Positions 3,701 to 27,724 of a DNA stretch of 64,000 nucleotides are shown here, piece after piece; the stretch's first letter is position 1; every line of letters begins with the position of its first letter. The notes below the pieces were generated by a model. It was not told where the DNA came from. It saw nothing but the letters and a program-made list of their open reading frames with translations, and did not search any database. A program made the translations under genes and the position numbers. Source of the stretch: Blasia pusilla. Its lineage: Eukaryota. The stretch covers positions 28,520,001 through 28,584,000 of the forward strand of contig CM114271.1 in assembly GCA_050084515.1 (NCBI GenBank), read 5' to 3'.

Positions 3701-4300
3701 GGACGTTTGTATATAACAAACCCAGGAAAAATTTCTATTCTCTGTTAGATTACAATTATTAAGGAAAAATTTTAGTTAAAGTTATAAACACATTCGTGCT
3801 TCCTTCCTCATATTTTTTTTGGCTAATCCTAGCTGAAGGGGAGCGTCATTGGTTACGATTACTTCTCCATCATGTGAGAGGAGCTCAATCATATAAAGAT
3901 TTGAGAACTATCGATGGTGTAGTTTATCCTACCTTCAAAGAGAGTGCTATTCAAATGGGACTTTTGGAGGACGATAGAGAGATCTTTTCTTGCTTTGAAG
4001 AGGCGGTTGTCATTCGCACTGGCTATTCATTACGTCTACTCTTTGCCATCAGTCTTCTATATAATACACCTTCTCTTCCGGCTATAGTGTGGGAATATTT
4101 TTTGGTTCCATTAACTGAAGATCTTCTACATCAAAAGCGTGAGGTAATATGCATGCTTTTTGTTAAGTTCATTTTTCTCTTACGAGTTTTTTAATGTATT
4201 TTATTTATGTTTTAACTTCTATATTTGTTCCTTGTAACAGAGAATTGGTATTCCGACCCTTCCATTGGATGTTCACATTATTAATCTTGCATTATTGGAG
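764..4300 (+). pseudogene. Helitron RepHel, Rep/HUH portion (spliced, disrupted)
   Basis: Motifs: CPSC..CCGHGK Zn motif, FRIQGGVYHSIG, FAQIYIHD, LPSSFIRGPRHM, GKPDYFLTMTCNPKWPEI (motif 1), VVEFKKRGLPHVHILI (HUH) and YFYKYVYKG (Y2). Short AT-rich GT-AG introns and in-frame stops are present. Confidence 0.92.
849..1113 (+). repeat. 135-bp (45-codon) in-frame tandem duplication in the Helitron N-terminal region
   Basis: LDKVHEFTDVGDPLIRSDANG...HASIPNVGS is repeated as LDEVHEIAHVGDLLIRSDAIG...HVSIPNVGS, offset 135 nt. Confidence 0.9.
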
Positions 4301-5387
4301 GTCCATTACCATCCCATATGAAGAAGTAAAGGTTCCACATCCAGCTAAATTTGGTTCCTTCAATCGCTCTTCTGAACTCTTGATCTCTCATCCTCCAGAA
4401 AGTATCCAGCGCCTCCAAGTCCTCTTCCGTCACCAGCGCTTGAGTTCCATGTTCATCGTAAGGCCGAACAAAGAACGGAGGGAAGCTGTTGAGGTAGGAT
4501 GCAGTCGCTGCTGACTGTTTAAGCTTTGCAATGTCCTCCTCCGACTGAATTTTGCGGACGTACTCCATTGTCCGCAGTTGACAGAGTGGAATTCTCGGGG
4601 GGTTCTGGCCCTCCATCAGTGCCATCTGCTTAACAACCTGCCACAATGGGGACCAAGTCAATAAAATACAGTATTTTGCCAATGAATTGCATAATGAGCC
4701 TTCACATAACTCAAAATTTTCTTACCCGCTCAAAGATTGGGTTGGTGTCCATGCCTGCCAACTGCTCTAGGATAGCAGCTGGCAAGTCCAAGGGAAAGTC
4801 ATCGATCCGATAAAGGTCGATTTCTTCCACATGGCTCAAAGACGACGAAGACTCTTCTCTTGCTTCTTCAAAGATGTCCACCATCTCCACACTTGCTGTC
4901 CTTATGACCTCATCGTCCGTCACTTGAACTTCGGCTGTTTCCTCAGCTGATTTTAGATTCATGGTGTTTCTCCGATGAATCTAAAATCTAAAATGCACCT
5001 CATCGGAGACATTTCCTGCATCTCAACACTCTCTGTTGGATGGGCAGGGCTTTCTTCAATGGCGATTGCTTTTTCCCTTCGAGCTTTCGCCAATTCTGCT
5101 CTCCTCACAGAGGCGTCAAGACGCTTCTTCTCGCGTTTTTCATCTGCGACTCTTTTCTTCAAGGCCTTTGATGCCTCAGCCTCGGCGTTTTGCTTAGCGA
5201 GCTCCTCTAGAACACGTTTTGCTATAACCTTCTGCCTGTGCATATCTGCTTCCCTTTCCCGCTCCTATATTCCTTGTTGCCTTATCTCATTCGTCGAACG
5301 AGGACCTGGAGTTGGTGACGCAGGAGTCCTGATGGACTTGGGAGTGATGCTTCCTACCTTGGTTGCTTGTGTTTTCTTTCTCGTCAT
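4301..5387 (-). pseudogene. Accessory gene of copy 1, 5' part: charged N-terminus plus first part of a ParB/Srx-like domain
   Basis: ATG at 5387 (MTRKKTQATK). Predicted intron 4725-4638 (GTAAG...CAG). Exon 2 reads RIPLCQLRTMEYVRKIQSEEDIAKLK..SY...FFV...LYFFIWDGN and is truncated at 4301. Confidence 0.75.
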
Positions 5388-5785
5388 GGTGCACGTTGGG
5401 TCAATTCTTCTTCCTCGATAGTCTAATCTGCTCCTATGCATGATAGCTCCCTCGAATCGTTTCGTGATGAAGCGTCGTGATCCTAAACCCAACTCTCTTA
5501 GAGTTTCGTGATGAAGCGCCCTGACCCTCTAGTGGATGGGCTTGTCGAAGTTGGATGCTGGATTTTTGAAGCCTTCCAGCCAAGTGGTGATGTAACCGAG
5601 TTTGGCAGCAGAAAGATAACGTCATTTGCTGTGAGGAAGAGCACATGAAATCACGAAATGAAAAACGGAGATGATCGAAACCTCAGCCTTTTATACTTTT
5701 TGAGCCGTTGAGCTGACCGATGGATCGTTGGGTCGTACCGACGGCGACGTGTTGGCCGTTATGGAACTTTGCACGTAGGAACTCA

Positions 5786-6140
5786 GGCAACCCATCGGTC
5801 TCCGACGGGTTGCACGCTTCCCTCGTCTTGGGGATGCAAGGCGAGTTACCGAGGCAACCTGTCCGAGATCGACGGGTTGCACGTATCCCTCATCCTCGGG
5901 TTGCATGCGTACAATCCGTCGGTCTCCGACGGGTTGCATGCTTCCCCCATCTTGGGGTAACAAGGCGAGGTACCCGCGCAACCTGTCGGAGACCGACGGG
6001 TTGCACTCTTCCCCCGTCTTGGGATAACAAGACAAGGTACCCGGGCAACCCATCGGAGACCGACGGATTGTACGCTTCCCTCATCTTGGGGTAACAAGGT
6101 GAGGTACCCGGGCAACCCCTTGGAGACCGACAGGTTGCAC
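5786..6140. repeat. Tandem array (about 65-bp units) of a 27-bp palindrome in the copy 1 intergenic region
   Basis: Repeated units of GCAACCCRTCGGNNNCCGACGGGTTGCAC-GCTTCCCTCRTCTTGGG. Confidence 0.9.
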
Positions 6141-6773
6141 GCTTTCCTCGTCCTCGGGTAACCATACGACAAAGCATCGTCCTGAGGCAAGCCGTTGCCC
6201 TTCGACGAGTTACAAGGTCTACCTTGGGTTGGACACTTCCCATCATAGGGAAAAACTGCACTCACGGTTTGCACGGTTCATTGGACAAGAGAAATCAACG
6301 CGAGATCCAAAAGGGAAAGCGAGGTTAGGTGCCTTTCAAACCCATCGTAGTCCCCAACGGGTTGCCGTAGCAAATCCATGCAATGTCTCCTGTCTCGATG
6401 TTAGCAAATCCCGACTCCAATCACACAGGTTAGACAGGCACGGGGTACCAACCCAACGGACTCCGACGGGTTGCAAGTTGCTCTCGGACTCTTATAGATG
6501 ATGGTACTCTGTGGCTTTGCAACGCACGTGTCTGAGTCCCAAATTTTGCAACCCGTCGGACTCCAACAGGTTGCAACAGGATTGAATTCATTCCGTTAGA
6601 CAATCTTACCTACCAAACAACATCTTGTCTGTCGAATTCTGTCAGGACCAAACGGTCTGCTATCACTATTCACTATAAATTAAACATTTTCATTTTCATT
6701 CCCATTCCCATTCTCATTCTTATTCTTATTCTCATTCTCATTCTCATTCTCCACCCGGTGGAATCATCTGGGA

Positions 6774-7531
6774 ATGGATAATTATGTGAAACTCACTTGT
6801 GGTAGTCATCTAGCGGCCCTTCCTCAATCAAGAATAGTTTGACAGCAAGCTCGTGAATCTTTCATACCAGTGGATAAAAATTTCCTCTTAGTGTGATTTC
6901 TTCTCCAAATTGGAACAATCTTTGTTTCCAAGGATGTTAGGGTGGACAGTACGGAGGACATTGTAGGTGAGACAGTCCAGCCAGTGATAGCAGACCGTAA
7001 AGTTTGGAATCTCCTACCCCTAAAAAATGGTCAATACAGAGTTTATGGCTTGCCTCTGAATTCCTCTGTTTCCCAAGTAGACGGTCCAGAATTTCCTAGT
7101 GCACCGAGCTCTACGTTTGCCACTCCAAGCTTAGTAGACTTCACACGTTTGTAACAATGTTGTACTTCTTGAAGACATTTCGGATGTCGTCAACTTCACT
7201 GGAACTGTCGCACACCAACCGGGTCCTCTATCCGCCTACTTGTTCCTCTTGCGAGTATTAGGCAATAGTTTGTTGTCATCTCTGCCCTTTAAAATGTTCA
7301 AGCACATTCTTGTCGAAGAGTTGCCGCCCACGTACGATGGTAATTGCATTTTTGAGTTGCCTCCACTTGCTGGTCTTGCTCAAAAGAAAGATGGAGGACG
7401 CTTGAAGGGTATGGACAAAAAGTATGATTGTCATCGATGGTGCATGCTTCAACGGACTAGTGCTTCAATTCCAAATGGTCCTTGGATTGTTTCTCGCCGC
7501 CAATGCGTTGGAGCCGTGGAGTGTAGAAGTC
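6774..7531 (+). pseudogene. MULE-like transposase of copy 1, 5' part
   Basis: ATG at 6774 (MDNYVKLTCGSHL, as in copy 2). TATAAA at about 6674 and an (ATTCTC)n leader precede it. Contains stops and a deletion, and is cut by the insertion. Confidence 0.88.
7523..7531 (+). other. Left 9-bp target-site duplication GTAGAAGTC
   Basis: Identical 9-mer at 18990-18998. The 9-mer is single at the equivalent position of copy 2's own uninterrupted transposase (GTGTAGAAGTCCAGC near 15384-15398). Confidence 0.95.
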
Positions 7532-9988
7532 GGGGGCTGGTATTCTGGCAAGAGAGAGGAAGAGAGGAGAGTCTCTCTTCAAAAAAAAGGGCCAAATCCG
7601 CCTCCTCTCTTCAAAACTTTTTGACATATTTGAAATTTTTGTTTGCTTTCAAATTCATGAAATCTTTAGAAGAGAGTAGGTAGTGGTCCACGTTCGGGCC
7701 TAAAGAAACCTCCTTTTTTCAGGGGGCGAAAAACTAGTAGACATCATAAGACCACTACAAAAATTTTCCCATCACTCGATCTACATGTGAGCCCAAGTTT
7801 TTTCACATTGCCTGTCTCAGTCTACAGTAAGCTATGCCCAGGGCTATTTTTTTCGGAGGACCATTGGCAAATAATGTGACCAGAAGTAGCAATCTCATCT
7901 CAACACAGGAGACGATAATTAAACCAAAAGATTGTTAGCTATCTGGAGTAAAGAGAAATCGATGTCCCTTTGTTCAGATCCTAAATCTGATAAACTGAGA
8001 TGTTGCACCCCTCCCAATCCGTCGGAATTTTACAGGTTCCAACTCTTGCAACCCGTCAGAATCAGATGGCTTGCACCCCTTGCAAGCAAGCTCACCATAA
8101 CAAAGCAAAGATTTTGAGAAGTGATTCCATTTCACCCTGCACCCATGAAAATTCAACTGTTTGGGATTCCGAAATGGCAATCCGACAGGTTATAGGAATC
8201 CAACACGTCTTAGAGAAGAAAAGAAGCCTAAGACTGGTTTGACGATACTAGGGGAACGAGCCAAAAGTGAAGAAGCCCGCCACAATGCCTCAGAATTTGG
8301 TCTACCAGGGAAAGAGTCCGACCACTCAAGCAGCCAACCTGTCGAAATCCGACAGCTTGCCTGGAAATGGTTGAAAAGTTGCAGTGGTCAAAAAGTGAAA
8401 AGTTGAAACCCGTCGGAATCACACGGGTTGCAAAATAAACATTCTGAGTAGCTAGACGAACACAATCCACAAGTCCAAAAATATTTTCTGCAAACTTTTA
8501 CAAACACCATTATCGGTTGAAAAAATCTCGTCCTTTATTACCTCCGAAGGAACCTCGGAAATGTACATTTGATCTAGTCTATGATTTCTTCAGCCTCATC
8601 ATCCACAAATTTACTCCTAACTCTCCTAGGTTCCTGTACAAAAGGAATGTCCTGGGATACAAGTGGCTCCTCTGGCCGATTGTAGACGGGGATTGAAAAT
8701 ATTGGCGAATTCGAGAGCCTTGGCCCCCCCCTAGGTACCCCATAACGGTCCCATGTAACCTGATTTGAGTCCCACCGCCTTCCTCGGCAGTATATGTTGT
8801 ACGCTCTGCAATGTGACACCCATCCAGTATCAATATGTGCTCCGTCCTTGGAAATACCATGATGGCAATCCCACAGGTAGTAGGAATCCAACACGTCTGA
8901 GAGAAAAGAAGAAGCCTACGCCTTGTTTGACGATACTAGGGGAAGGTGCCAAAGTAAAGAATCCCGCCAGAATGCCTCTAAAGTTGGACCAACACGGAAA
9001 GAGTCCGATCACTCACGCAGCCAACCTGTCGGAATCCGACAGGTTTCCTGGAAGTGGTTAAAAAATAGAATTCCTCGGAGTACATAGATGATCACATTCG
9101 AAAAGACATAAAAGATATTCAGCAAACTTTTAGAAACACCACCATCGTTCGAAAAAATCTTGTCCTTTATTACATCCGAAAGAAGCTCGGAACTGTACAT
9201 TTGATCTTTTCTATGATTTTTTTTGCCCTCGTCATCAAATAAATCCCTACTCCAAACGCTGCAGTCAAGCTGGGTCCTTGAGTTCTTTGAACTCACTCGT
9301 CATTGTCCGATAGCTCTCGCAAAATTACTGTCGGCCTTGCCCTCCCGATTTTTGGAATTGTGGGAAGTGACAATGGTGTCACTACCAGTGGTGGGTCTAG
9401 AACCGGAGCTCTCGGCTTCGGAGGAGAGTTGTACGCCCCAACTAGCCTGTCGTAATCTGCCTTTGCCTCCTTGCAAAGGTCAAACAGTTGCTGCCTTCCC
9501 TCAAGGCAGAGAATGTTCCTACCACTATGCCAGGCGCCTCTGATACTCGCCCCTGAAAGGCCCACTAAGTCGGACATCAGGTCACCCGACCTTGAGCAGA
9601 GCTTGATGAGCGTTTGCATCAGGGCTGGCGACTTTTCCCTTCCTCCAAGTAAGGGGGTACCGTCTTGCATGTAAATTCCCGAGGGGGGAGCGGGGAATTG
9701 TATAAACTATCTAAGGTGTACCCATCGGAGCATGGATCCACAGGATCCATGATCTTAAAAACCTGGAAGTTGTGCTCGGGCCAAACAAAGCAGTAAACAT
9801 AGGAGTGGTCCATCTGTAAGGATGCACGTTGGAAACAATGTCAGCACCAAGAAAGAGCTACTTGACCACTGGTCTACTTTCAGTATGGTGACATAATGTG
9901 CAACACGTCCCCAAAGAACTTCTCTTAACCCCAGAGAACTTCGCTATAATCTTAACATTGGAGCAACCTGTCGGAGTCCGACGGGTTG

Positions 9989-10347
9989 TTTTTGTCCATG
10001 AGCAACCCGTCGGAAGGTGACAGGTTGCTGGCTTAGAGCAGCCCATGGTTGGCTGAGAGCAACCCGTCGCTTTCCGACGGGTTGCATCATTCCAGAAACA
10101 TAGGGAAAATGCATTACCACCTGCAACCCGTCCGGTCGAGGGGGCCCCATAAAAAGCATGCATGAAGGGAATCAAACTCGCAATAGGACCCCCTGCGAGT
10201 TCCGACGGGTTGCAGGTGGTAATGCGTTTTCCCTGTGTTTCTAGAATGATGCAACCCGTTGGAAAGCGACGGCTTGCTCTCAGCCAACCATGGGCTGCTC
10301 TAAGCCAGCAACCTGTCGCCTTTCGATGGGTTGCTCATGGACAAAAA
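9989..10347. repeat. Long inverted repeat (about 160-bp arms, about 40-nt spacer) inside an intron
   Basis: TTTTTGTCCATGAGCAACCC...CATTACCACCTGCAACCCGTC is mirrored by GACGGGTTGCAGGTGGTAATG...GGTTGCTCATGGACAAAAA. Confidence 0.93.
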
Positions 10348-12769
10348 GAATCCGTCGGAGAAATACAATCTAGAGACAGGAATAGAGCCTTACCCGAATT
10401 TGACTCGTCGCAGATTGGAGTGGGTACTCGTTCTTGATGATCCACGATTGCGCCGTCCTCCACTTCAGCGACCTCTTGACCCACTGGAGGTTGAAAAGCT
10501 TGTCCTCGCTCCCTCCAGTCAAAACTAAGAAACAGCCCCTGTCATTGAGATAAGCGTCTGCAAAGGAAACAGGAGTGCGATCTGGTCATAAGAAAGGGGG
10601 ACATTCAAGTCTGGGACCCCGTCGGACGGATTCTCGTCCCACAAGCGCAACCCCGAGGGCAAATCAGCGACCAGCAGATCCACCGCTACCTCTTCGACCA
10701 CCCCATGGACCGTCCAGGGAGCGTGCCCGTTTTGTTGAAGCTTCCGTCCCAGCGTTGTCAATTTCTCGATGGCGGATGTCGACGCTTGGGAACTGAAACT
10801 TTTCAGCTCATCCAGTAGATTCGTGTGGTGAAGGATGACGCTTGTTCAGGTCATTGTTTCTCTATGTCTTCCCAAGGATGATGGACTGTATTCCACATCC
10901 TGGTCTGCTCCCTGGGACAACCCCGGCGCCTCTTCCTTCCGCTTCTCTCGAGTCTGCGGTTGGCTTGTTGGGGTCTCTATGACCTCAGACTCTGGTGGAG
11001 TTTTTTTTGCGGAGGACCTGGTCCGACCCTCTCTCCCCGCTCGCCCGGACGATTCCGGCTCTTGCCTTGAATTTTTAGCCTCTCTTTGGGAAGACTCGGC
11101 CTCGGAATTCTTCAATCCCCTTGCCTTGGCTTTGAGACCCGCTGTAGATTTGTCCTTGGGTGTGACAACCTTGGACTCCAACTCCGTTGTCTCAGGGCTT
11201 GGTCTTCCGCATCTCCTTCGAAAAAGTCTTCAGGTTGCACAAAATTGGGGATGTCGTCCCTACCTGCGGCCACTGCATCATAAAGCAGGCGTAGATCTTT
11301 CTCGGTTATGTTCTCAGGGTCGTTCAAGTCCAGCCAAATCCTCCTAAACAATAAAAATATTTACATGAGGAGGGACGTTCGGGCAATTCTCCACCTCCCA
11401 ATCGGACATGCTTTGAGCCATCTCCGTGTCGTATATGGAAAATGTCTCTCCATCACGCAGAGAAGCCCACAATTTTCAGGCTGCCGGTTATTTTTGCCAT
11501 GTACCTGCATTCTTACAATGGACGAGGTACCTGAACACCATGCGTTGGGCAGCTCTTAGTCGAGATGCATCGTCCGCCTGCTCCTGAAGATCTCGCTTCT
11601 TCTTTGCGAGATCCCTTTTTTTCGCCTCGATTTCTTCGTCAAGGTCTGCCTGAGGGAGGATGCGATCCTTGGACATCGTCCTGAAACCTGGGTTTTTTAT
11701 GGGCTTGTCCCGGATGTCATCCAACCAAAGTTCAAAATCATCAGCACTCTCCAGGTTTGCTTCCTCCGGAAGTGGCTCTATTCTTTTCAGCTCCGCTTGG
11801 AGACCCACGAGCATGGACTTCCCGAAAAGCCGCAACGCGTCCCAGAATGACCATTCCCGGATCCAGTGGGAGATCACTGGAACTGAGACACCTGGAGGAT
11901 GGTGTGCCGCCCTCTTTTGGGCCTATGTGCCCTCGAGACTGATTTTCATTAGTTGTATTCTCCTAAATTTGCTTATTCCAGACAAGGCAAATCGATGCAC
12001 GCGATCGAGAGACACATTCTCCCCAATCCGACCTTACGGATCTTCATCCCTTTTCCTCTGGCGCTTGATTATCGCCTTCAGCTCCTTGTAGAAATCAGGA
12101 CAAAGTTCCGGGTTGAGAATGGCGATGTAGCACTGCATCTTGCTTGCCGTGTACTTTGTAGCTGCAGATACTGCAGCTTGGATGAATTTTGCACGCTCAG
12201 ACACAGACACTTTCTCCCTCCAATGCAGCGCTCTTCTTGGCGGCCTGTATCTTCGACCAGCAAAGGATTGTGACGCCTGCATCTTGGGAAATAAATTTAT
12301 TTGCCCAAGTCTTCTTTTTGATTTGTGCACCCTTTGCCAGCATCTCATTTACAAGGGCATCGCCCAAGAACCCCTTGTACTCTGCCGGGTGCGTCGTTAG
12401 CACTTTCTTCACCCGATCGCAATCCTGGATCCAGCGGCGGGTGACAGTCCCCTCCGATAAAATCTTGCACATCCAAACTCAATATAAGAAATTTTGTAAG
12501 GTACATGGGTTCCAACAACCCGTCGGACTCCGACATGTCGTCACAGCTCATGGTTGGATTGTAGCAACGAGCTAAATTTTGCAAGCCATTGGAGTCTGAC
12601 GGATTGCATTCAGATTTGTGATTGCCTGGTTTCAACCCGTCGGACTCCAACGGGTTGTCAGATAGTCCGTATTTACATAGTGGTTACCGCGAGAAAAGTG
12701 AACATATCAACCCGTCGGAGCCGACAAGTTGCGCGATTTCAATGAAAGCTGCACTTTGACGCCAAAAAT

Positions 12770-13250
12770 GTAGCTCCCAACTTCCGAATGCAACCTGTCG
12801 GACTTTGACCAGTTGCTTTCGGCCAAAAAGATCCAAAAACAGCTTCGAGTCAAGCAACCCGTCGGACTCCGACGAGTTGCTTTCTTCAAAAAACATCCAA
12901 AAAATGCGGCGAGTCGAGCAACTCGTCGGACTCCGAAGAGTTGCTTTCTTCAAAATACATCCAAAGAATGCGGCCAGTCGAGCAACTCGTCGGACTCCGA
13001 CGAGTTGCTTTGGGCCAAAAACATCCTAAACCTGTGGTCAGTCGAACAACTCGTCGGACTCTGACGAGTTGCTTTCGGCCAAAAACATTCTAAACCAATG
13101 ATCAGTCGAGCAACTCGTCGGAGTCCGACGAGTTGCTTTCCGCCAAAAAAATCCTAAACCAGTGATCAGTCGAGCAACTCGTCGGAGTCAACGAGTTGCT
13201 TTCGGCCAAAAACATCCCAAAAAACTTGTCGGAGTTCGACGGTTTGCAGC
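12770..13250. repeat. About 59-bp tandem array carrying the palindrome variant GCAACTCGTCGGACTCCGACGAGTTGC, intronic
   Basis: About 8 consecutive units of CAGTCGAGCAACTCGTCGGA(C/G)TCCGACGAGTTGCTTTCGGCCAAAAACATCC. Confidence 0.92.
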
Positions 13251-13731
13251 AAGAGGAAACTTACGTGTTCATGGCATGCATGGCCATCTCCACCGTCGCC
13301 ATGTGATGAGGGTATGGATGTAGCACCACTGCCTTCACGGAAAAATGTGCCTCCAATGAGTTTGGGCGCTCCTCTTCAAAGTGGGTCCACGCCATGAACC
13401 TATGATTTCCATCCCAGATGAAGAAATACAGGTTCCTCATCCAGCTGAATTCCGTCCCCTCTATCGCCCTTCTGAATTCTTTTTGTCGGCGATCCTTTTC
13501 TTCAAAGCGTGCGAGGCCTCTCCCTCTGCGTTCTGTCTTTTGAGCGCCTCATTTACACGTTTTGCAAGAAGCTCATGCTTGTGCATCTCCGCTTCCCTTT
13601 CCCGCTCCTCGATTTCTTGCTGCCTTATCTCATTGGTCGAACGAGGCCCTGGACATGGTGACGCAGGAGTCCTCATGGACTTGGGAGTGAAGCTCCCAGC
13701 CTTGTTTGCGTGAGATTTTTTTCCTCGTCAT

Positions 13732-14622
13732 TTTTCCCAAAAATGCCTCCTCCTATGTGCACGATGAATCGCTTGATGAGTCGCCTTGCTGATGTCGAGA
13801 TGAGTTGCCTTGATGGGTAGCTCGAATCGTCTTGCGATCGTTCACTCGAATCGTCTTGCGATGACTCGCCGTGTTAAGCACCCCTTGGTATCTGGTCAGC
13901 TGCTGCGCGGGAGAGCAATTGAGATCGCGAAATGAAAAACCGGAAATGAGCGATTTCTCCCCTATTTATACTTTTCGAGCCGTTGGACTGACCGTTGGGT
14001 CGCATCGTCCTTCCGACAGCGACGTGCCTTGACGTGAAAAAAACCAACCCGACGGCTTCGACAGGTTGCACGCTTTTGGAGGGTTCAAGGCATCCGTCCT
14101 TGTGGCAACCCGTCCGAGATGGACAGGTTGCGCGCCTCCGCCATCCTGGGCCGAGAACACGAGGTGCCCGAGAAACCCGTTGGAGACCGTTGGGTTGCAC
14201 GCTTCCCTCGTCTTGGGATAACAACGCAGGCTTCACAAGATGTATCCTGAGTTGGACAATCCCGCAAAAGTCCCCAAAAATTGGTTGCCCTAGCATTAGC
14301 AAGTGATATCTTGTGTTTGATGCTAGCAAAATCGCCTCAGAAGATCTTCGGTCGGCAAGAAGGGGGTACCTACCCAACAGACTCTGACAGGTTCCAACAA
14401 AATGAAGTGTGCTTCGCAACCCACGTCTCTGATTCCCAAATTTTGTAACCCACCTGACTCTGATAGGTTGCAGCAGAATTGAATCCATTGTGTCAGACAT
14501 TTTCACCTACCAAACTTCATCTTGTCAGTCAGATTCTGTAAGGAGAATCTGAGTTCCTATTCACTATAAATTAAACATTCTCATTCTCATTCTCATTCTC
14601 CTCCTGGTGGAATCTTCTGGGA
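13732..14622. promoter_or_regulatory. Putative bidirectional promoter region between the two divergent genes
   Basis: TATAAA at about 14565 (+) and TATAAATA at about 13963-13970 (-). Matching TATA boxes are conserved in copy 1 (about 6674 and about 5690). Palindromes lie between them. Confidence 0.55.
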
Positions 14623-17600
14623 ATGGATAATTATGTGAAGCTCACTTGTGGTAGTCATCTAGTGGCCCTTCCTCAATCAAAAATCGTTCGACCACAAGCT
14701 CGTGAGTCTTTCATAGCAGTGGATGAAAATTTTCTCTCTGTTCGATTTCTTCTCCAAATTGGAACCATCTTTGTATCCAAGGATGTTAGGATGGACGGTA
14801 CGGAGGACATAATAGGTGAGACACTCCATCCAGTGATTGCAGACCGTAAAGTATGGAATCTGCTACCTCTAGCAAATGGTCAATATAGAGTTTACGGCTT
14901 ACCCCTGAATTCCTCTGTTTCCCAAGTAGACGGTCGAGAATTTCCTAGTGCACCGAGCTCTACGTTTGCAACTCCTAGCTCAGTAGATCCGGCTTCGACT
15001 CCAACTTCACACGCTCGTAACAATGTTGTTCTTCTTGAAGAGATTCCGGATGTTATCAACCTCAGTGGATCTGTCAGACACCAACCGGGCCCTCTGTCCG
15101 CCTACTCGTTCCTCTTGCGAGTATCAGGCAATAGTTTGCTATCGTCTCTGGCCTTGAAAATGTTCAAGCACATTCTTGTCGACGAGATTCTGCCCACGTA
15201 CGATGGTAATTGCATTTTTGAGTTGCCTCCACTTGCGCTCTGCTCAAAAGAAAGATGGAGGGCGTCGAAGGGTATGGGACGAAAGTCTAATTGTCATCGA
15301 TGGTGCGAGCTTCAGCGGACTAGTGCTTCAATTCCAGATGGTCCTTGGATTGTCTCCCGCCGCCAATGCGTTGGAGCCTTGGAGTGTAGAAGTCCAGCAT
15401 GCCCGTATGTAGAGCGCAACGGGCGAGTCAATACATCGCAATTTCACCCCAAGAATGCAGAAACTCCATACGAGGTCGGTGCCACCATACCGCCGGGAGG
15501 CCATCGATGTCTGATTGTCGCATCGCCACGATTGGACCGTGTCTGCATACATATTTTTCATTGTCCACGACTTGGGCTCCACGTCGAGTACACAAGGTGG
15601 CAGTTCATGTTGGCTCCCACACTCATCCTGTGACCGATGCAATTCACAGACACATCAAGGAGGATGTGGCGAAGAAAGTTGCCGAGGTCTACAGAAACTC
15701 TCCGGGTTCAAAGCCTGGACTGATCAAGCTCACAACAACATCAAAAATTTGTGAACAATTGCTTGGAATCCCTAGACAGGGCAAGATCACGGCGGCTGAG
15801 GAGAAACAACTCTGGGAAAATCTCGCATTTCTCGCTGATCCTAAATGCTTCCAGAATTTGCTGCGTCAAATACGGGTTCTGGATGGAAAGACGGCCGAAA
15901 TGGATGTCATCGCCAGAATCAAGGCCAACTCCAGATTTCCATTCATTCAGAGATGGCAGTTCATGGGCCAAGGAGGCGAGGGATCCAGGGCCTATGTCTT
16001 CAAAATATCAACCACAGGTCCGTCGAGTGGCCTCGATCTTATAGATCAAATGAAGGAAGGGGAAGATCTTTACGACAGCTGGGTAAGCTTTGATATTTGC
16101 TACAGAGTGCTGAGCGGATGGTTGACAATGGGTGCTCATGTTTATGACCATGTGGAGAAGGGACTCAAAACTATATTTGTCTGTGAAGTAAAAGCAGAAG
16201 ACGTTGGCAGTTTGAAGATGTGCTGGTTACTCTTATTGGAGGTGGTGAAGGAAAACACAAGGCCAACTCCGGAAATTTATGGGTTCATGGCGGACAATGC
16301 ACAACCTGGGTGGATTGCTATCTGGGAAGTGTTTTGGGATGGAGAGGTTCAACCGGAGAGGGAAAGGTCGGATGCTTTCCATTGCATCAAGGAGAATAAG
16401 AGGACAGAGCATGTCACTCTACTCCAACGCTGCAAGGACAACAAAACCTTGAAACAGGCCATGGAATACCAAGAAGAACTTCATGGCTGGTGGAGGAAGC
16501 ATGCGATTGAGGGGAAGTACAAAGAGTTGTGCTCTTGGTTGAGTTGGTGGGCTGTACGTATGAGACAATGGGGAAACTTCATGCGGCAGGTGAGTTCACT
16601 ATTTTGTCTTGTCAAGCTCACGCTGAGAATTGTTTGTAAAGTTGCAGCTCAAGTTGAGAAGCGTGGGAACTATAGGGATTTCAAACCGAAGAAACCAAGC
16701 AAGTTGTCGGATGCGACGGGTTGCCCGAGTGTGCAACCCGTCGGAAACGGACGGGTTTCCTGAGTGTGCAACCAGTCGAAAACCGGCGGGTTGCATCCAG
16801 AATTTTGGTGCAACCCGTATACAAGTATCCAAGTCGCATGTATACAAGGCCTGCAAATAGTTCGACCCGGATGGGTTTCGGATGACTTGCACTTGGATCT
16901 TCCATCCCGGAGTGGCCAAAGGTTCTTGCAACCCGTCGGAATCCAACGGATTGCAGTAGGTGGGTTTAGGGTTGCAACACGTCGGGACCCGACGGGTCGC
17001 AGAGTCGTTTATGGGATGCCTCGGCCTTGCAACCCGTTTGGTTCCGACAGGTAGCTTATTTCTTTGACTCCTGAGCTATTTTCGTTCCCTTCTAACATTG
17101 CCGTCGTTGCAGGGATTGAACATTCATGAAAATGTCCTCTGCCCCAACACAAGTGGAGCAGAAAGTGTTCATTCCTCTTGGAGGTCGTTACAAGCATGCC
17201 AACGAATTTTACTTGTGGAGGCATGCCAAGAAGACCAGGCAAGAGCAATGCTACAGTCTGCAGCATCCCATATCTTCCTCACAAAAGGCATAACAAAAGG
17301 AAGGGGGCCTTCGATCTACGAGCTCTATGTCAGGGCGGCTGTGAGATCTGGTGATGAAAAACTCTATGTGGAAGCCTTCAACCGGTGCGTAGCTGGAACT
17401 CCCCTTGAGCAAGACGTACACATTGGTGGGGATATTCATGGGCGGGTTTCAAGACGTCCCATACAGATGGTGGTAGAGCAGTCCGAGCGAGACTCGTGGA
17501 GACCACATAAGTATATTGACTTCAGGCAGGTGAAGAGGCAGCAACGAGGAACGAATCCGGTGATTGATTTGGATGAGGAAATTACGCCGCCCAGGTTTTC

Positions 17601-18597
17601 GGGGACCCCGGACCGCTCCCAAATCCGTGATGGAGTAACTTCTCCCTCCGTTGCTGGAAGTTCGCAACATCCGATCGGTGGGGTGGTTCAACAATATGGG
17701 ATTCCGGTAATGGAGGTGGATTGCAACCTAAATCGGTGGCATATATCTCGGAGCAACCCAAGACGTGGACCCACCTGCAGGGTAGGATCTGATGGCATTA
17801 GGAGAGCATGCGGCACTTTCCTAAATAAGAATTGTACAAGGACTGGACGACCACTGGCTGGGTTTTGGGGACTCAAAACCTTTGATCGTTTCACGAGGAC
17901 CGGGGATCAATTGAAGTACTTCTTCTGCCCAAATAAATCTTGCGCTTTCCGAAAGTCTTATCCAGCTGCCATTAGAGCTCCAGGGAATACCCCCACCATT
18001 TGGCCCATCGCCGTAGGTACGAACTGCACTCAAGACGAAGTGGACAATCTTACAAGTGCCGGTTTCAGACTCGTAGACGGGGGAAGTTCGGAGCATGTTC
18101 GTATTACAGAGACCTTCGCATTTCGTATTCAACCCAAGATTGATGTCAATATGTACCCGAAGAAAGTGGATGATCTCAATCCACTATTTCTGTTTGAGTC
18201 TAGAAATGGGGTGAAGAGAAACAGAATGTGTAGGCCAACGGTGGAGAGAGCAAAGCGAATTGCATCAGCTCGGGAGGCAAAAATGGAGATCATCGCCACA
18301 AAAGATGTCCTACGTGGCAATGGAATAGGAAGGATGTATTGGGTCAGGAACAACACTGTAAATTCAAGTGTCATAGGAGTGTATTTGGTGCACATCTGTT
18401 GCTTTCCCACATGTTCATGTGATAACTTTGTCCAAAGAGAGACAAGTCGCAAAAGGTATTTCCCTTGTAAGCACATGTACTATGTGTTGTTGGTAGTTTT
18501 AAGAGAGTCGGAGGTAGGAGTAGGAATCCACCAACCAATTCTGTCCCTCAAAGAAGTGCTATTATTTTTAACAAACCATTTTGAGGATGCAAAATGA
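14623..18597 (+). pseudogene. Mutator-like (MULE) transposase with GCM/WRKY-like Zn finger and C-terminal SWIM finger; exons 14623-16589 and 17113-18597
   Basis: Zn motif CVGALECRSPACP...HVGSHTHP. DDE-like motifs WVSFDICYR / GFMADNA / SDAFH / TSGAESVHSSW. SWIM motif CSCDNF..PCKHMYYV. Intron GTGAGT(16590)...TGCAG(17112). Has frameshifts and an 11-codon deletion relative to copy 1. Confidence 0.88.
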
Positions 18598-18989
18598 GGT
18601 TTTAGATTGTATTCATTTTTCAAGAATTGTACTTTCATTTTTCACTTCAGCTTGAACTCTATTCAGCCCAGGGCAAATGATAGATTATTTCCAGACCTTG
18701 GATGGAAAAAGTGATTGGTTCCACACTTATGATTCCACTTATTTTTCAGTTTTGTAAATTTTGTGCAATTTGCAACCGGTCGGACTCAGATGGGTTGCCA
18801 AAATATGGAAGAGAAAAAAAAAACTATGGGACTGCTTAATAACTGAGCAAAAAAGTACAAAAAAATTCACAAAAAAAATTTCCTCTCTTCAACCCAACGG
18901 AAACTCTCTTAAAAAAAAAGTATCTATTCCGGTTGAAGGTAGTTTCCTCTCTCCTCTCTTCCTCTCTTCCTCTCCTCTTACCGCACCTC

Positions 18990-18998
18990 GTAGAAGTC
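18990..18998 (+). other. Right 9-bp target-site duplication GTAGAAGTC
   Basis: Matches 7523-7531 exactly. Confidence 0.95.
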
Positions 18999-21900
18999 CA
19001 GCATGCCCGTATCTTGAGCGCAATGGGCGAGTCAATACGTCGCAATTCCCCCCTAAGAATGCAAAAACTCCATATGAGGTCAGTGAGACCATACCGCCAA
19101 GAGGCCATCGATGTCCTCATTGTCAGGCATCCTCTTTCTGCGTTGGAGCGTGTCCTGAATACATATTTTTCATTGTCCACGACTTCAGTTCTACTTCGGA
19201 GTATACAAGGCTGGAAGTTCAGGTTGGCTCCCACATTTATCTTGTTATCGGTGCAATTCAGAGACATATCAAGGAGGATGTGGCAAAGAAAGTGGTCGAG
19301 GTATATGGATACTCTGTGGGATCAAAGCCCGGAGTGATCAAGTTAACAACAGCATCTCAAATTTGTGAACAATTGCTTGGAATCCTTGGGCAGGGCGAGA
19401 TCACGGTTGCTGAGGAGAAACAACTCTGGGAAAATCTCACATTTCTCGCTGATCCTAAATGCTTCCAGAAGTTGCTACGTCAAATACGGATATTGGATGG
19501 AAAGATGGCCGAAATGTATACCATTGCTAGAATCAAGGCCAACTCCAGATTTCCATTTATTCAGAGATGGCAGTTCATGGGCCAGGGAGGCAAAGGATTA
19601 AGGGCTTATGTCTTCAAAATGTCAACAACAGGGCCCTCGAGTGGCCTCGATCTTATAGATCGAATGAAGGAAGGGGAAGATCTTTACGGCAGCTGGGTAG
19701 GCTTTGATATTTGCTACAGAGTGCTGAATGGATGGTTGACCATGGATGCTCACGTTTATGACCATGTCAAGAAGGGACTCAAAACTATATTTGTCTGTGA
19801 GGTAAAAGCAGAAGACGTTGGTAGTTTGAAGATGTGTTGGTTACTCTTATTGGAGGTGGTGAAGGAAAACAAAAGGCCACCTCCGAAAATTTATGGATGC
19901 ATGGCGGAAAATGCACAACCTGGGTGGATTGCTATCAGGGAAGTGTTCTCGGGTGGAGAGGTTCAACTAGAGAGGGGAAGGTCGGATGCTTTCCATTGGC
20001 AACAGTCTGTGACCCGGTATACCAAATCTTGCATCAAGGAGAAAAAGAGGACAGAGCATGTCACTCTACTCCAACGCTGCAAGGACAGCAAAACCTTGAA
20101 ACAGGCCATGGAATACCAAGAAGAATTTCATGGGTGGTGGAGGAAGCAAGCGATTGGCTCAATTGGTGGACTGTACGAATGAGACAATGGCGAAACGTCA
20201 TGCGGCAGGTGAGTTCAGTATTTCGTCTTGTCGAGCTCATGTTGAGAATTTTTTGAAAAGTTGCAGCTCAAGTTGAGAGTCGTGGGCACTAAAGGGATTT
20301 CAAACGGAAGAAACCAAGCAACCCGTCGGATGCGACGGGTTTTCTGAGTGTGCAACCCGTCGGAAACCGACGGGTTTCGTGAGTGTGCAACCAGTCAAAA
20401 ACCGACGGGTTGCATTAAGAATTTTTGTATTACCCGTCGGAGCACGACATCATGCACGAGGAATGTTTGTGCAACCCGTCGGAATCCGATTGGTTGCATG
20501 AGTGTGCAACCTGTCGAGTCCCGACGGGTTGCAAGTTGCATATATACAAGGCCTGCAAATTGTTTGACTCAGATGGGTTGCAAGCCGCAAGGCTGCGAGT
20601 CCGTCAGATTCCGACAAGTTGCATCTGTCAGCAACATGTGGGATTCCGACTAGTTGCGTCTGTATGCAACTCCTTGCATTCAGACAGGTTGCGGTTGTCT
20701 CCAAGTCGCATCCACACATGTTTTATCAGTTCAAGTTAATTGGAACCCGTCAAATTTCAATAGTTGCAAAGCTTCGTGTGTGGACACTTCTTGCAAGCCA
20801 ACGGAATCCGACAGGTCGCACAAGAATTTTCGAGACTGGACCGGCCTGCTTCTCACAACCCGTCTGATTCCGACGGGTTGTAGTACAACCTTTGAGTGCT
20901 AGGTTGCAGTAAAAGGTTACATGGATATTCCAGGGATGTCTCCGACTTGCAACCCGTTTCAAGTCGGAGGCTGGAAAATCCATGTGCGGTTTGTCGGATT
21001 CCGATGACTTGCACTTGGATCTTCCAGTCTAGAGTGGCCAAAGTTACTTGCAACCAGTTTGAATCCCACGGGTTGCAGTAGGTGGTTCCTGGGTGTTGCA
21101 ACATGTCGGAAACCGACGGATCGTAGAGTCATTCATGGGATGCCTCCGACTTGCAACCTGTCTAGTTCCGACAAGTAGCTTTTTTCTTTGCTCATAGACG
21201 TTCCCTTCTTACATTGTCGTCGTTGCACGGATTGAACATTCATGAAAATGCCCTCTGCCCCAACACAAGTGGAGCAGAAAGTGTTCATTCCTCTTGGAGG
21301 TCGTCACAAGCATATCAAAGAATTTCACTTGTGGAGGCATGCCAACAAGACCAGGCAAGAGCAATGCTACAGTCTGCAGCATCCCATATCTTCCTCACAA
21401 AAGGCATAATAAAAGGAAGGGGTCTTTGATTTACGAGCTCTATGTTAGGGCGGCTATGAGATCTGGTGATGAGAAACTGTATATGGAAGCCTTCAATCGG
21501 TGCGTAGCAAGAACTCCCCTCGAGCAAGATGTACACATTGGTGGGGATATTTGTGGGTGTGTTTCAAGACGTCCCATACAGATGGTGGTAGAGCAGTCCG
21601 AGCAAGACTTGTGGAGACCAGATAAGTATCTTGACTTCAGGCAAGTGAAGAGGCAGCATCGAGGAACGAACCCTGTGATTGATTTGGATGAAGAAATTAC
21701 GCCGCCCAGGTATTTGGAGACCCTAGATTGCTCCAAAATCTATGATGTAGTAACTTCTCCAAAATGAGTGAATATTTTATTTCAAAAGCCCTCCGTTGCT
21801 AGAAGTTTCCAACATCCAGTCGCTGGGGTGGTTCAACAGTATGGGATTCCGTTCATTGAGGTGGATTGCAACCTCAAAAGATGGCATATATCTCAGAGCA

Positions 21901-22724
21901 ACCCTGGACGTCGACCCACTTGCAGGGCAGGATCTGATGGCATTAGGAGAGCATGCGGCACTTTCCTAAATAAGAACTGTACAAGGACTGGACGACCACT
22001 ACCTCGATTTTGGGGACTCAAAACCTTTGATTGTTTCACGAGGATCGGGGATCAATTGAAGTACTTCTTCTGCCCAAATGACTCCTGCGCTTTCTGAAAG
22101 TCTTATCCAGCTGCCATTGGAGCTCCAGGGAATACCCCCCCAGTCTGGCCCATTGCCAAAGGTACAAATTGCACTCAAGAGGAAGTGGACTCAAGTTCCG
22201 GTTTCAGACTCGTAGACGGAGAAAGTTCGGAGCACGTTCGCATTACAGAGACCTTTGTATTTCGGAATCAACCCAAGATTGATGTCAATATGTACCTAGA
22301 GAAGGTGGATGATCTCAATCCACTATTTCTGTTTGAGTCTAGAAATGGGATGAAGAGAAACAGAATGTGTAGGCCAACGGCGGAGAGAGCGAAGCGAATC
22401 GCATCAGCTCGGGAGGCAAACATGAAAATCATCGCCACAAAAGATGTCTAGAGTGGGAATGGAATAGGAAGGATGTATTGGGTGAGGAACAACACTACAA
22501 ATTCAAGTGTCATAGGGGTGTATGTGGTGCACATCTGTTGCTTTCCCACATGTTCCTGTGATGACTTTGTCCAAAGAGAGACAAGTGGGAAAAGGTATTT
22601 TCCTTGTAAGCACATGTACTATGTGTTGCTTGTAGTTTTAAGAGAGTTGGAGGTAAGAGTAGGAATCCACCAACCAATTCTTTCCCTCAGAGAAGTGCAA
22701 AGTATTTTAAACAAACCACTTTGA
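18990..22724 (+). pseudogene. MULE-like transposase of copy 1, 3' part (DDE plus SWIM)
   Basis: Paralogous to 15386-18597. Intron 20209-21228 has a mutated acceptor (CAC). Multiple stops. Confidence 0.9.
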
Positions 22725-23112
22725 GGATGCAAAATGAGGTTCTTCACTTTGAGCTTGAACTCTATTCAGCCCAGGGAAAATGATAGATGTTTTCCAGACC
22801 TTGGATGGAAAAGTGATTTGTTCCACATTTATGATTCCAATGATTTTTCTATTTTTTAAATTTTATGAAAATTGCAACCCGTCGAATTTTGACGGGTTAC
22901 CAAAATGTGGAAGAGGAAAAAAAATGTGTGGGAGTGCCTAAGCACTGAGAATAAAAGTGCAAAAAAATTCACACAAAAATTTTCCTCTCTTCAACCCAAC
23001 AGAAACTCTCTTCAAATCACAGGAAACTCTCTTCAAAAAAATGTATCTCTTTCGGTTGAAGGTAGTTTCCTCTCTCCTCTCTTCCTCTCTTCCTCTCCTC
23101 TTACCGCTCCTC

Positions 23113-24219
23113 AAGTAGTTCCTGCACGCTTACGATATATATTGTGTGGTTCCGCCCGTGGTGCAGCCATGATGCTAGTCTGTGATGAGTGTTCGAGAGG
23201 ATGGCATATGGCATGTCTGACGTCACCTCTCGCTAGGGTTCTTGAGGGACGATGGATGTGTTCCAGATGTACATAAAGTAGATAGTTATAGATTCCGACT
23301 TGTGTCTATGATATGGATGACAAGAAGGCGACTAATGATGGGGCCACATGAGCACCCGGCCTTTATGCTCGTAGCGTCCGAGAGATGTATATAATGGTAA
23401 GTAGGGATATATGGCTATCTGGAGTTAGAGGGACCTAACCACCAATTACGGGGGAAATTGGAGATATTTTGGTACTTCTTGTCTCATTTTTTGGATGCCA
23501 TGAGTTAGCATGGGATCGTGTGTGTTTGTATGTATCTTCGTTGTCAACGATGTATGTTGTGTAGCGATGTGTATGTGCACGATAACTGTCAAGAATTTTA
23601 GGATAGATCGGCAAGATCTAGTAGAGGGCCTTTGGAGATAGTGGAGAAGAGCCTGAGGAGGTCGAGGATGACCTACTGAGGCCACGGGTAACCTGAGAGA
23701 GTAGGTTTTCCCTTTGTTTCGGCTTTGGAGCCATATAGAGAAACTTACTATTTTGGGTAAGTTTCTATCTGGAGTATAGTTGACTTTACACTTTGGGAAG
23801 GGGCCCTTGACCCGCTTCAGCAGGTCAAGAGCCAAGGGAGCTGACCAACAAGCATAGGTTACAGAGGAGAGCGCTTGGGAGAGGGAAGGGGATATACCTC
23901 CAAGAGAGAGAGCTTGAGAGCTCATTCTCTTTTTGTTGAACCTCTTGGCATGAGGCAGTGGAGCTATGGTTTTCCTTGCCTTGTGTGTGTAACCCAAACC
24001 TCTCATTAGGAGAGTGGGGTTGGTTTGACTTGAGAGAGAGTCCACACCATGGAGAGCTTGGTGTGAGATGTGATGAGAGATCTCATTAATTTATTGGAGA
24101 TATTTTGGTACTTCTCGTCTCGTTGTTTGGATGCCATGAGTTAGCATGTGATCATGCGTATTTGTGTGTATGTTTGTTGACAATGATGTATGTTGTGTAG
24201 CGATTTATATGCGTAGACA
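23113..24219 (+). mobile_element. 3' fragment of a PHD-finger Ty3/gypsy element: PHD, PPT and LTR (23459-24219)
   Basis: LCGSARGAAMMLVCDECSRGWHMACLTSPLARVLEGRWMCSRCT is followed by a purine tract, then an LTR with about 125-bp direct repeats at 23459-23584 and 24095-24219. Confidence 0.85.
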
Positions 24220-24589
24220 TACATGCTATGATAGATTTCTTTGATAGTTTCCGACGATCGGGATTACCATGGGATTTTAGTTCTAATATATATGAACAAC
24301 TTCGTATCAGTTTGATGAAGATAACTTATTGAATTAGTAACCGTAGAGACTTCAACCATCAGATCATGGTTTATCATCAAGGACTTGATGCTTTACAAGA
24401 TGATATGTATGGTGAAGATGTGCACAAATCTCTTGAGGGCAACACTGGTTTGGACAAGGTGAGATTGAATTTAAAAAGAGCTAGCTAATTTGGTGACATG
24501 AATTTTTTACTTCATCTTCATCTTAAGTCTAGTTTCTAGAAAATTTAGAAATTTTTGGTATTCATACTCGAAAGTTTCTTTTGTAGGCT

Positions 24590-25378
24590 GTGGAAACTGG
24601 AGTTAATGTGCTATCGAGTCACAAATTTGACTTAAGGATGATTCATTTTGAGGATCATCATCTCCCACTTTTTATTCCGACCCAAATGTTATTGAATGCT
24701 CAACTAGAGTTACAATTGAACTTGCAATCTGCTCTGATAGTATGCATGGCTTATGATGAGGCATTTCCAAAGGTAAAATCTCAAATTAAATGTACTTATG
24801 AAATGTTAGATTATATTCCCCAAAAAATAGTTAACATCTATCTAATTTTTCCATGCGAAGGACTAAGAAGAAATTTCTTTTTCTTTTACCATTTACCATT
24901 TTTTACTGAAGATCATGAATGTCTTGGCAAATCCTTCTGGTCTAGGAGATAGGTTTGGAGATTGGCCTATTTATGTCCGAGCAAGTTATGACTTCTTTAA
25001 CTCGCCTTACTTTAATAATATTGCAATCCAAGTAGAGGGACAAGAAGAGAATGCATTAACTTGGTATGGTCAATTGAGTTTACTTTTTGTGTGTGAAACT
25101 ACTTATCCCATGGGCAATAAATACAAGTGGGAGCTGCTTTGCTAAAAACCTATGAAAAGGTATCTTCCAATAGACTAACTAGACTTACATGATGTAAACT
25201 TTTCACTTGGAAACACGACAACATTCGAAGGAGGAATGTGATAAGTAACACGAGAAGAAATCTATCACTCCCTGATCCTTACATGGTAGTTGAGATAAGT
25301 AACATCCTTAGGGCAGTTCACGGGATCCTGAATTTTCAAGAGAATGATCAGTTTCTCTTAAACAGATTCACATTTTGA
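24590..25378 (+). pseudogene. Degenerate transposon-derived ORF resembling the C-terminal region of Plavaka/EnSpm-like proteins
   Basis: Pattern YVRASYDFFNSPYFNNIAI..WYGQLSLLF..YMVVEISNILRAVH..FLLNRFTF. The assignment is from recalled motifs only. Confidence 0.35.
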
Positions 25379-25419
25379 ATCAATGGATAATCAATACAAT
25401 GGAACTTTTTTTGGAAAAA

Positions 25420-25895: not shown

Positions 25896-25909
25896 TAAAT
25901 GGTATATGG

Positions 25910-27722: not shown

Positions 27723-27724
27723 TT

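Follow-up and report, generated by a model that had tools for sequence, protein, structure and literature searches.

Two decayed copies of a probable transposon accessory gene, with ParB/sulfiredoxin-like and methyltransferase-like domains, in the genome of Blasia pusilla

Here we describe a gene that is present as two damaged copies on a 64,000-nucleotide stretch of Blasia pusilla DNA (assembly GCA_050084515.1, contig CM114271.1, positions 28,520,001 to 28,584,000 of the forward strand), referred to below as the window and used for the numbering of all positions. Both copies lie on the minus strand and retain complementary parts of a domain resembling those of ParB and sulfiredoxin (Srx), marked by the motif DGNHR, and copy 2 continues into the remains of a methyltransferase-like domain. 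Each copy is accompanied by sequence of a divergently oriented partner gene and by arrays of a 27-bp palindrome, and the whole is probably what is left of a repeated transposable element with an accessory gene. It is rare for a transposon to encode a protein that binds the transposon's DNA and marks it chemically. While the result for this locus itself is modest, namely two dead copies, it leads to a family of intact proteins in other plant genomes.

The two gene copies

In copy 2 the DGNHR codons occupy 13399-13413 (-), as established from the frame translation and exact position. They belong to a stop-to-stop frame at 13261-13548 (-) that reads ...EFRRAIEGTEFSWMRNLYFFIWDGNHRFMAWTHFEE...VEMAMHAMNT up to its stop codon (in a longer reading, ...EFRRAIEGTEFSWMRNLYFFIWDGNHRFMAWTHFEEERPNSLEAHFSVKAVVLHPYPHHMATVEMAMHAMNT followed by the stop). 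The exon piece itself, delimited at 13265-13470 (-) by tblastn with Riccia proteins, encodes the C-terminal half of the ParB/Srx-like domain (EFRRAIEG...AMHAMN), and comparison with the relatives by tblastn within the window gave E values of 2e-8 to 1e-4. A GTAAGT donor at 13264-13259 directly follows the AMHAMN codons. The 5' coding part, comprising the start codon and a basic and coiled-coil region, lies at 13480-13731 (-) and is 80% identical to 5137-5387 of copy 1, with a 1-nucleotide length difference just past the ATG that has shifted the frame in copy 2. Between 13470 and 13480, approximately 770 bp of copy 1 (roughly 4366-5136) are absent, a deletion by which the ParB/Srx-like domain has lost its first half.

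Copy 1 preserves the opposite portion. Its exon at 4305-4637 (-) encodes the N-terminal two thirds of the domain (IPLCQL...FFIWDGN), with the IPLCQL codons at 4575-4592 and the WDGN codons at 4305-4316, and the frame at 4281-4721 (-) reads ...PPRIPLCQLRTMEYVRKIQSEEDIAKLKQSAATASYLNSFPPFFVRPYDEHG...NLYFFIWDGN followed by an unrelated GPPIMQD and a stop (longer reading, ...QNPPRIPLCQLRTMEYVRKIQSEEDIAKLKQSAATASYLNSFPPFFVRPYDEHGTQALVTEEDLEALDTFWRMRDQEFRRAIEGTKFSWMWNLYFFIWDGN). Homology ends at 4305, right past DGN, where the copy adjoins a truncated Helitron. Upstream of the exon, an 88-nucleotide GT..AG intron of phase 0 can be read from the sequence at 4638-4725 (-), preceded by a coding part at 4726-5400 (-) that contains the start codon and a coiled-coil and acidic region. 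This part is interrupted by an in-frame TAG near 5264 (after ...IRQQGI) and by a frame change near 4980.

The Helitron fragment spans 636-4194 (+), its frame at 1359-2954 matching Helitron_like_N at E 8e-51; it ends short of the helicase domain and abuts the copy 1 break point at about 4200-4305. Among 14 frames of at least 90 residues in 22800-32000, none stood out by eye as the helicase remainder.

An earlier, sequence-only reading of this DNA had placed DGNHR at precisely the codons given above, had described copy 2 as lacking the upstream part and copy 1 as cut after DGN, and had treated the two as complementary fragments of an intron-containing gene; all of this is borne out, including its exon limits, since the exon start at 4637 agrees with the 88-nucleotide intron. 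A second intron is indicated by the GTAAGT donor of copy 2: 22 of the 36 homologue rows that reach the ...MHxxN column stop no more than two residues from it, which fits a shared exon boundary. The same reading held that the domain could be reconstructed only by combining the two copies, a view that is superseded by intact natural versions in other genomes. It also overlooked the methyltransferase-like C-terminus of the protein, the setting of the gene in a repeated, transposon-like element and the pseudogene state of both copies.

Beyond the DGNHR exon, copy 2 is colinear by tblastn with P0054, a full-length Riccia protein of 1,207 residues, from 13452 to 9416, all blocks being on the minus strand. 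The first block (13452-13267) corresponds to residues 258-321 and the next (12457-12236, beginning SEGTVTRRWIQDCDR...) to residues 324-398; an in-frame acceptor for the intervening intron could not be placed by eye near 12457-12478. A helical middle region follows at 12129-11380 (residues 436-657) and contains four in-frame stops. The start of the methyltransferase-like domain occupies 10950-10421, in two blocks at 10950-10579 (residues 873-989) and 10549-10421 (residues 1001-1045), and includes a motif IV-like ADLPSGL, the stretch LNDRGCFLVL and one in-frame stop. Its end, with an S-adenosylmethionine (AdoMet) motif I-like GDLMSDLVGLSGAS, lies at 9673-9416 (residues 1095-1175). The later exons of copy 2 thus carry at least five in-frame stops. 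Through truncation, frame changes, deletion and in-frame stops, both copies in the window are dead.

The gap between two of these coding blocks holds a pair of inverted repeats of 156 nucleotides each (9977-10132 and 10204-10359), 94% complementary and 71 nucleotides apart. They may represent either an array that forms a hairpin or a small element that was inserted there.

Three raw RNA-seq runs carrying the same species label were compared with 9300-15700, 6-12% of each run being scanned. The 107 reads recovered included none that was at least 99% alike and none with a splice joint, and 96 of them covered the stretch in part only, mostly on the 64-bp repeat array described below. Reads that are so few and imperfect, and that lack splice joints, give no sign that copy 2 is transcribed.

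Protein family and predicted fold

When 1.84 billion representative proteins were searched by phmmer with the copy 1 frame, 51 matched at E<=1e-3, four of them at E<=1e-10 (best relative, E 6.1e-15 and 37% identity), and a profile search for the same family returned 49. Named relatives came only from the liverworts Riccia sorocarpa and Calypogeia fissa and the fern Adiantum nelumboides, the others being unnamed. In an alignment of 45 rows that includes both window frames (A2), the family signature is [VI]-P-L-C-R-[LM] ... [WF]-D-G-N-H-R-[LV]-x-[AT]-W. The motif is conserved in the homologues (D in 38/44 rows, G in 38/44, N in 42/44, H in 40/44 and R in 38/43), contrary to the condition under which the sequence-only reading would have been refuted, and a tryptophan four residues past it is kept in 40 of 42 rows. 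Searched singly, the window frames gave nothing relevant in Pfam, PDB sequences or PHROGs, copy 1 gave nothing in the ESM Atlas, and a single family protein, P0022, gave 52 pattern matches in metagenome and viral collections, none of which was confirmed.

For structural comparison, the intact natural relative P0004 (231 residues) was modelled in place of the broken window protein, using AlphaFold2 with alignment A2. The model has a mean predicted local distance difference test (pLDDT) score of 81, with 84-98 in the 10-residue blocks from residue 71 onwards and above 90 in the core. When it was compared with the PDB by Foldseek, all listed ranks down to 44 were Srx, ParB, KorB, Noc, SbnI or PadC, at E 0.047-2 and with probabilities of up to 0.97 (1yzs, E 0.047; 6ky4, probability 0.97). 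A VIA search against 48,161 representative PDB chains gave 13 with Z>=2, all of which, judging by their titles, we take to be of the ParB/Srx type: KorB (Z 7.8; root-mean-square deviation 2.8 over 92 residues), PadC (7.0), Arabidopsis Srx (5.9), the N-terminal part of pNOB8 ParB (5.7), Atu1540 (5.2), free serine kinase (5.1), human Srx (4.8), SbnI (4.3), SspE (3.3), BrxU (3.0), Spo0J (2.8), a Dnd entry (2.7) and Osa (2.2). In the model, DGNHR corresponds to residues 180-184 and sits at the turn from a strand (176-180) into a helix (182-192), a position that we presume, from its place in the model, to be that of GERR in ParB and of GGCHR in sulfiredoxin. Accordingly, the DGNHR stretch is predicted to be part of a conserved domain that spans about 150 residues and folds in the manner of ParB and sulfiredoxin.

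Some sequence matches appear to point in the same direction as the fold. Along the DGNHR stretch, three of 50 members gave a match to TIGR03187 ('DGQHR domain') at E 0.001-0.002, their scores reaching no more than 18.9 bits where the cut-off is 58.85; the Pfam family DUF1015 matched 3 of 45 members, and DndB (PF14072) matched 1 of 45 at E 0.066. We regard these as weak echoes of ParB-clan families. A fold search of BFVD returned many phage ParB/Srx proteins, the best at E 4.7e-3, and so no close viral relative.

Full-length architecture

In this land-plant family the proteins are about 1,100-1,250 residues long and have the DGNHR domain as their N-terminal module. Full-length members from Riccia (P0054, 1,207 residues; P0072, 1,244 residues; P0015, 1,191 residues) share one order of parts, in which the ParB/Srx-like domain is followed by about 600 conserved residues, for the most part without annotation, and then by a methyltransferase-like C-terminus. 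A helix-turn-helix or C-terminal dimerisation domain after the ParB-like domain was not recognised in them by Pfam or PDB profile search.

The C-termini match Pfam N6_N4_Mtase (PF01555) at E 5e-5 to 9e-6 (best 9.4e-6), 7 of 17 members doing so at E<=0.01, and one family member, P0073, carries a precomputed PF01555 label. The same domain matches PHROG DNA-methyltransferase families at E 2e-7 to 5e-6, and the family's C-terminal profile matches DpnA-type adenine methylase in the PDB (5hek/5hfj) at E 0.0024. AdoMet motif I (D-x-F-x-G-x-G) is located at the C-terminal end, where DIVIDFAGGWGAT of the family aligns with DIVLDPFMGSGTT of 5hek and the window has the GDLMSDLVGLSGAS noted above. Taken together, these profile matches suggest that the C-terminus is a permuted (beta-class) N6/N4 amino-DNA-methyltransferase-like domain.

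Several Riccia sorocarpa members (P0052, P0054, P0055 and P0072) bear the UniRef name 'Trimethylguanosine synthase', which looks like an automatic mislabel because Pfam and PHROG gave only DNA-methylase-type matches. Annotations of this family call for caution, as the ParB-like part has no Pfam label.

The repeated element and its partner gene

Self-comparison of the window DNA revealed three pairs of repeated blocks, all in the same orientation: 5137-5387 with 13480-13731 (80%), 5621-5966 with 13895-14227 (67%), and 6514-7531 with 14411-15394 (83%). The unit repeated with the two gene copies thus extends into a second gene, which is divergent to copy 2 and occupies 14575-18597 (+) with three long frames of 352, 457 and 509 residues; a fragment of it at 6514-7683 accompanies copy 1. 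The 3' 3.6 kb of this partner gene (15386-18989) are tandemly duplicated at 18990-23112 (+) with 85% identity. The two duplicates stand head-to-tail and are joined without a spacer.

Mutator-like elements (MULEs) are characterised by a MULE transposase domain, a SWIM finger, long terminal inverted repeats and a target duplication of 9-10 bp. In the ESM Atlas, the neighbours of the middle frame of the partner gene are MULE and ZSWIM1-3 RNaseH-like clusters (0.96, with 179-185 shared features), which carry PF10551 or PF21056, and its only Pfam match is a weak one to the SWIM finger, at E 0.05. We consider the partner gene a candidate MULE/SWIM-like transposase, a lead rather than proof.

Copies of a 27-bp palindrome, GCAACCCGTCGG-N3-CCGACGGGTTGC, fill the element; 28 of them occur at no more than 3 mismatches, versus 0 expected. 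All 44 copies at no more than 5 mismatches fall within 5787-22874, that is, only inside the repeated element, where they are placed between the two divergent genes and in introns or gaps between coding blocks. In copy 1 the arrays between the divergent genes consist of 67-bp units at 5787-6162, with their copy 2 counterpart at 13895-14227, and the intron after the DGNHR exon contains an array of 6.8 units of 64 bp at 12790-13223, each unit with the palindrome in it. The copies are partly arrayed as 35-, 64- and 67-bp units.

A matched change in both palindrome arms occurs in 10 of the 44 copies, at 5 positions, and several of the arm changes are C>T or G>A at CpG sites, as expected of methylated, silenced DNA. 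These compensatory changes were considered as a trace of selection on pairing and were not counted as such, because symmetric decay at CpG sites would give the same pattern, and because a T/A variant is confined to one tandem array.

Other features of the window

Just past the duplicated unit, a frame at 22893-23276 (+) ends in a Cys/His pattern resembling a PHD finger (CDECSRGWHMAC...CSRC). Long frames at 33000-36200 (+), 41700-45700 (+), 49400-50700 (+) and 61500-63400 (-) were judged by eye to be retrotransposon polyprotein-like, on account of motifs resembling those of the reverse transcriptase and integrase of Gypsy and Copia elements.

Interpretation and alternatives

We interpret the two copies as pseudogenes of a transposon accessory gene that joins a ParB/Srx-like module to a methyltransferase-derived domain and lies, in a palindrome-filled element, beside a candidate MULE/SWIM-like transposase. 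We put the probability of this reading at roughly three in four.

Several observations weigh against it. With a best Z of 7.8 and Foldseek E>=0.047, the structural matches score moderately, in a range that unrelated folds can also reach; the fold is nevertheless assigned, since every structural match is of one kind. At the level of sequence, Pfam ParBc (PF02195) matched 0 of 45 family members at E<=10 and 0 of 10 longer homologues at E<=1, neither window frame has a relevant Pfam match, and the A2 profile found no PDB sequence at E<=10. The ParB/Srx identity proposed by the sequence-only reading is consequently upheld at the level of the fold, by the P0004 model with Foldseek and VIA, and fails at that of the ParBc profile. 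The PF01555 matches, at 23.7-26.2 bits, fall under the Pfam cut-off of 26.7 and are confined to the end with AdoMet motif I, and when the methyltransferase-like domain of P0055 was modelled by AlphaFold2 with alignment A4 (17 rows), the result was unusable at a mean pLDDT of 44. The catalytic motif IV of amino-methyltransferases is (D/S/N)-P-P-(Y/F/W). The expected place of DPPY or SPPY, about 40 residues before the next conserved strand, is occupied in the family by LD[LM]P[ST]G and in the window by ADLPSG; this stretch is presumed, from its spacing, to be motif IV. Methyl transfer would be doubtful in such a protein because D-[LM]-P-[ST] lacks the aromatic residue of DPPY/SPPY.

The transposon side of the argument is open to similar objections. 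The partner gene has no Pfam MULE (PF10551) match, the transposase call being drawn from language-model features and one weak SWIM match, and it has only three relatives, all unnamed and none named from Riccia, so that the linkage of the two genes is known from this window alone. Neither terminal inverted repeats (seed 12, length 40, over 3500-27000) nor target-site duplications were found, and a short-word blastn comparison of 7500-9600 with 22000-25000 found no element termini. Finally, the likeness to algal accessory proteins set out below is drawn from the descriptions of those proteins.

Of the alternatives, the one nearest to the sequence-only reading is a ParB-type, nucleotide-dependent DNA clamp, using cytidine triphosphate (CTP), or a ParB-like nuclease module, acting alone. 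The best structural matches do include the CTP-binding ParB family (KorB with CTP-gamma-S at Z 7.8, PadC at Z 7.0, and ParB and Noc in Foldseek), and the arginine of DGNHR is predicted to stand at the start of the helix following the strand, as in GERR. The arginine box of the ParB CTPase, however, is GERRxRA, which is absent from the family and replaced by DGNHR-[LV]-x-[AT]-W; the ParBc profile is unmatched, and the sequence echoes lead only to DGQHR, DndB and DUF1015 and none to partition ParB. With that box replaced and no helix-turn-helix or dimerisation domain identified in the full-length members, a CTP-dependent clamp or nuclease is a guess. Moreover, the DGNHR domain always precedes the long region and the methyltransferase-like domain and is therefore a module of a larger, enzyme-like protein. 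We consider a clamp or nuclease acting on its own unlikely.

Quite unlikely, too, is a host gene, that is, a domesticated epigenetic enzyme akin to DN4MT1, of which the window would hold two decayed paralogues rather than transposon cargo. Gene models are present in annotated plant genomes, and both the missing element termini and the want of named Riccia relatives of the partner gene would fit such a gene. Against this, the Riccia genome contains dozens of diverged or fragmentary family copies (15 proteins in one listing and many more rows in another), both pseudogene copies travel with the same neighbour gene and the same palindrome arrays, and their surroundings are rich in transposons. The comparison with DN4MT1 itself is also unfavourable: this 4mC (N4-methylcytosine) methylase of Marchantia is described in the accessible text of PMC8885841 as being without extra N- or C-terminal domains, and the available part of bioRxiv 10.1101/2021.02.12.428880 gives its catalytic motif as TSPPY, so that on these accounts the Marchantia sperm 4mC methylases differ from the present family, with its D-[LM]-P-[ST], in both respects.

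Two further possibilities are very improbable, namely that the domain is a sulfiredoxin paralogue with a function in redox repair, or that the motif arose by chance in a frame that does not code for protein. The top Foldseek matches are indeed sulfiredoxins (1yzs and 6ky4), but 42 of the 44 rows have asparagine in place of the catalytic cysteine of the sulfiredoxin motif, GGCHR, and the domain, with its helical insert, is roughly double the size of Srx and stands inside a 1,200-residue protein. Chance is excluded by the 51 homologues.

The reading as a transposon accessory gene also suggests what intact members might do. Their ParB-like module, perhaps together with the helical middle part, would bring the protein to the palindrome arrays of the element, and the methyltransferase-derived domain might then mark or occupy the palindrome DNA, from which the transposon would benefit, for example by escape from silencing or by control of transposition. 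Carried further, giant Mutator-like transposons of liverworts and ferns may possess their own parS-like system, in which a ParB/Srx module on the palindromes tethers the D-[LM]-P-[ST] domain, either to set an unusual mark (6mA, i.e. N6-methyladenine, 4mC or another) or to act as a non-catalytic shield against host silencing. This extended proposal is tentative, and we would give it rather long odds. If true, it would extend the idea of self-binding, self-modifying transposons from algae to land plants, where it is genetically testable.

Comparison with known systems

Fusions of ParB modules with methyltransferases are a recognised architecture of bacteria and phages. They have a ParB/Srx module first and a beta-class amino-methyltransferase last, which is the order observed here. 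The methylases of phage ParB-terminase loci (PMC4738411) belong in the same comparison, and rank 21 of the BFVD search was a 479-residue 'DNA methylase' of a mycobacteriophage. Unlike the bacterial and phage fusions, the plant proteins have introns, an inter-domain region of about 600 residues, DGNHR in place of the ParB box and a non-canonical motif IV. The prokaryotic or viral origin suggested by the sequence-only reading would fit this pair of domains, while no close prokaryotic or viral relative was found. The branch comprising DGQHR/DndB and DUF262 (DGQQR) shares a D-G-x-H/Q-R motif at a strand-to-helix turn. SspE, BrxU and a Dnd entry are among its representatives in the VIA matches, but only at Z 2.7-3.3, compared with 5.7-7.8 for KorB, PadC, Srx and pNOB8 ParB.

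An accessory gene with ParB-like and DNA-methylase parts was flagged as a possible new class only in 2025, in giant transposons of algae. Sola1-1_Ec32 of Ectocarpus, a 21.5-kb Sola1 element, has opposite its transposase a gene for a 1,104-residue protein with ParB-like and DNA-methyltransferase parts, which is proposed, in the text available of PMC12477816, to bind and modify its own element. Going by that text, the present family resembles this protein in size (1,104 versus about 1,100-1,250 residues) and in having ParB-like and N6/N4 DNA-methylase domains, and the loci would also be alike in their coding strand, opposite to that of the transposase (here a candidate), and in their carrier, a DNA transposon longer than 10 kb (here a probable one). 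They differ in host (land plant versus brown alga), in transposase (MULE/SWIM-like candidate versus Sola1) and in the D-[LM]-P-[ST] motif found here. The VANDAL anti-silencing factor is the sole established case, among those named in the accessible text of the cited work, of a transposon protein that binds and marks its own DNA.

A preprint on Bostrychia (bioRxiv 10.1101/2025.02.11.637652) reports, in the part available, giant Plavaka and Mutator elements that carry PF01555 methylase and ParB-like genes. Of the red-algal genes described there, PAG2 combines PF01555 with SET and PAG3 a ParB-like domain with a 2-oxoglutarate (2OG) oxygenase; the ParB-like domain of the PAG3 type was seen only by HHpred (ParB 7BNR, E 0.29), and tandem arrays of inverted repeats lie beside the ParB-like gene. 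As far as that account extends, the likeness to the genes of our window is threefold: a ParB-like N-terminal domain detectable by remote or structural comparison only (7bnr being also Foldseek rank 9 here), a PF01555-type methylase as cargo (here a methylase-like domain in a probable element), and inverted-repeat arrays by the ParB-like gene. In the Plavaka case the ParB-like and methylase domains are split over two proteins, with 2OG oxygenase and SET as partners, whereas here they are fused, and the elements with such accessory genes are described as EnSpm/Plavaka, with Mutator in Chondrus.

In the openly accessible main-text literature we found no land-plant report of transposon genes with ParB-like and methylase parts, and 'DGNHR' led to unrelated papers only. 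By analogy with the algal descriptions, the layout of the window appears to match that class point by point, and the gene described here would be a land-plant member, in the form of pseudogenes, of a class noted in 2025 in brown, red and green algae. The two-domain design is present in liverworts and one fern, and the protein family, its motif and a candidate DNA site can now be used to test the idea.

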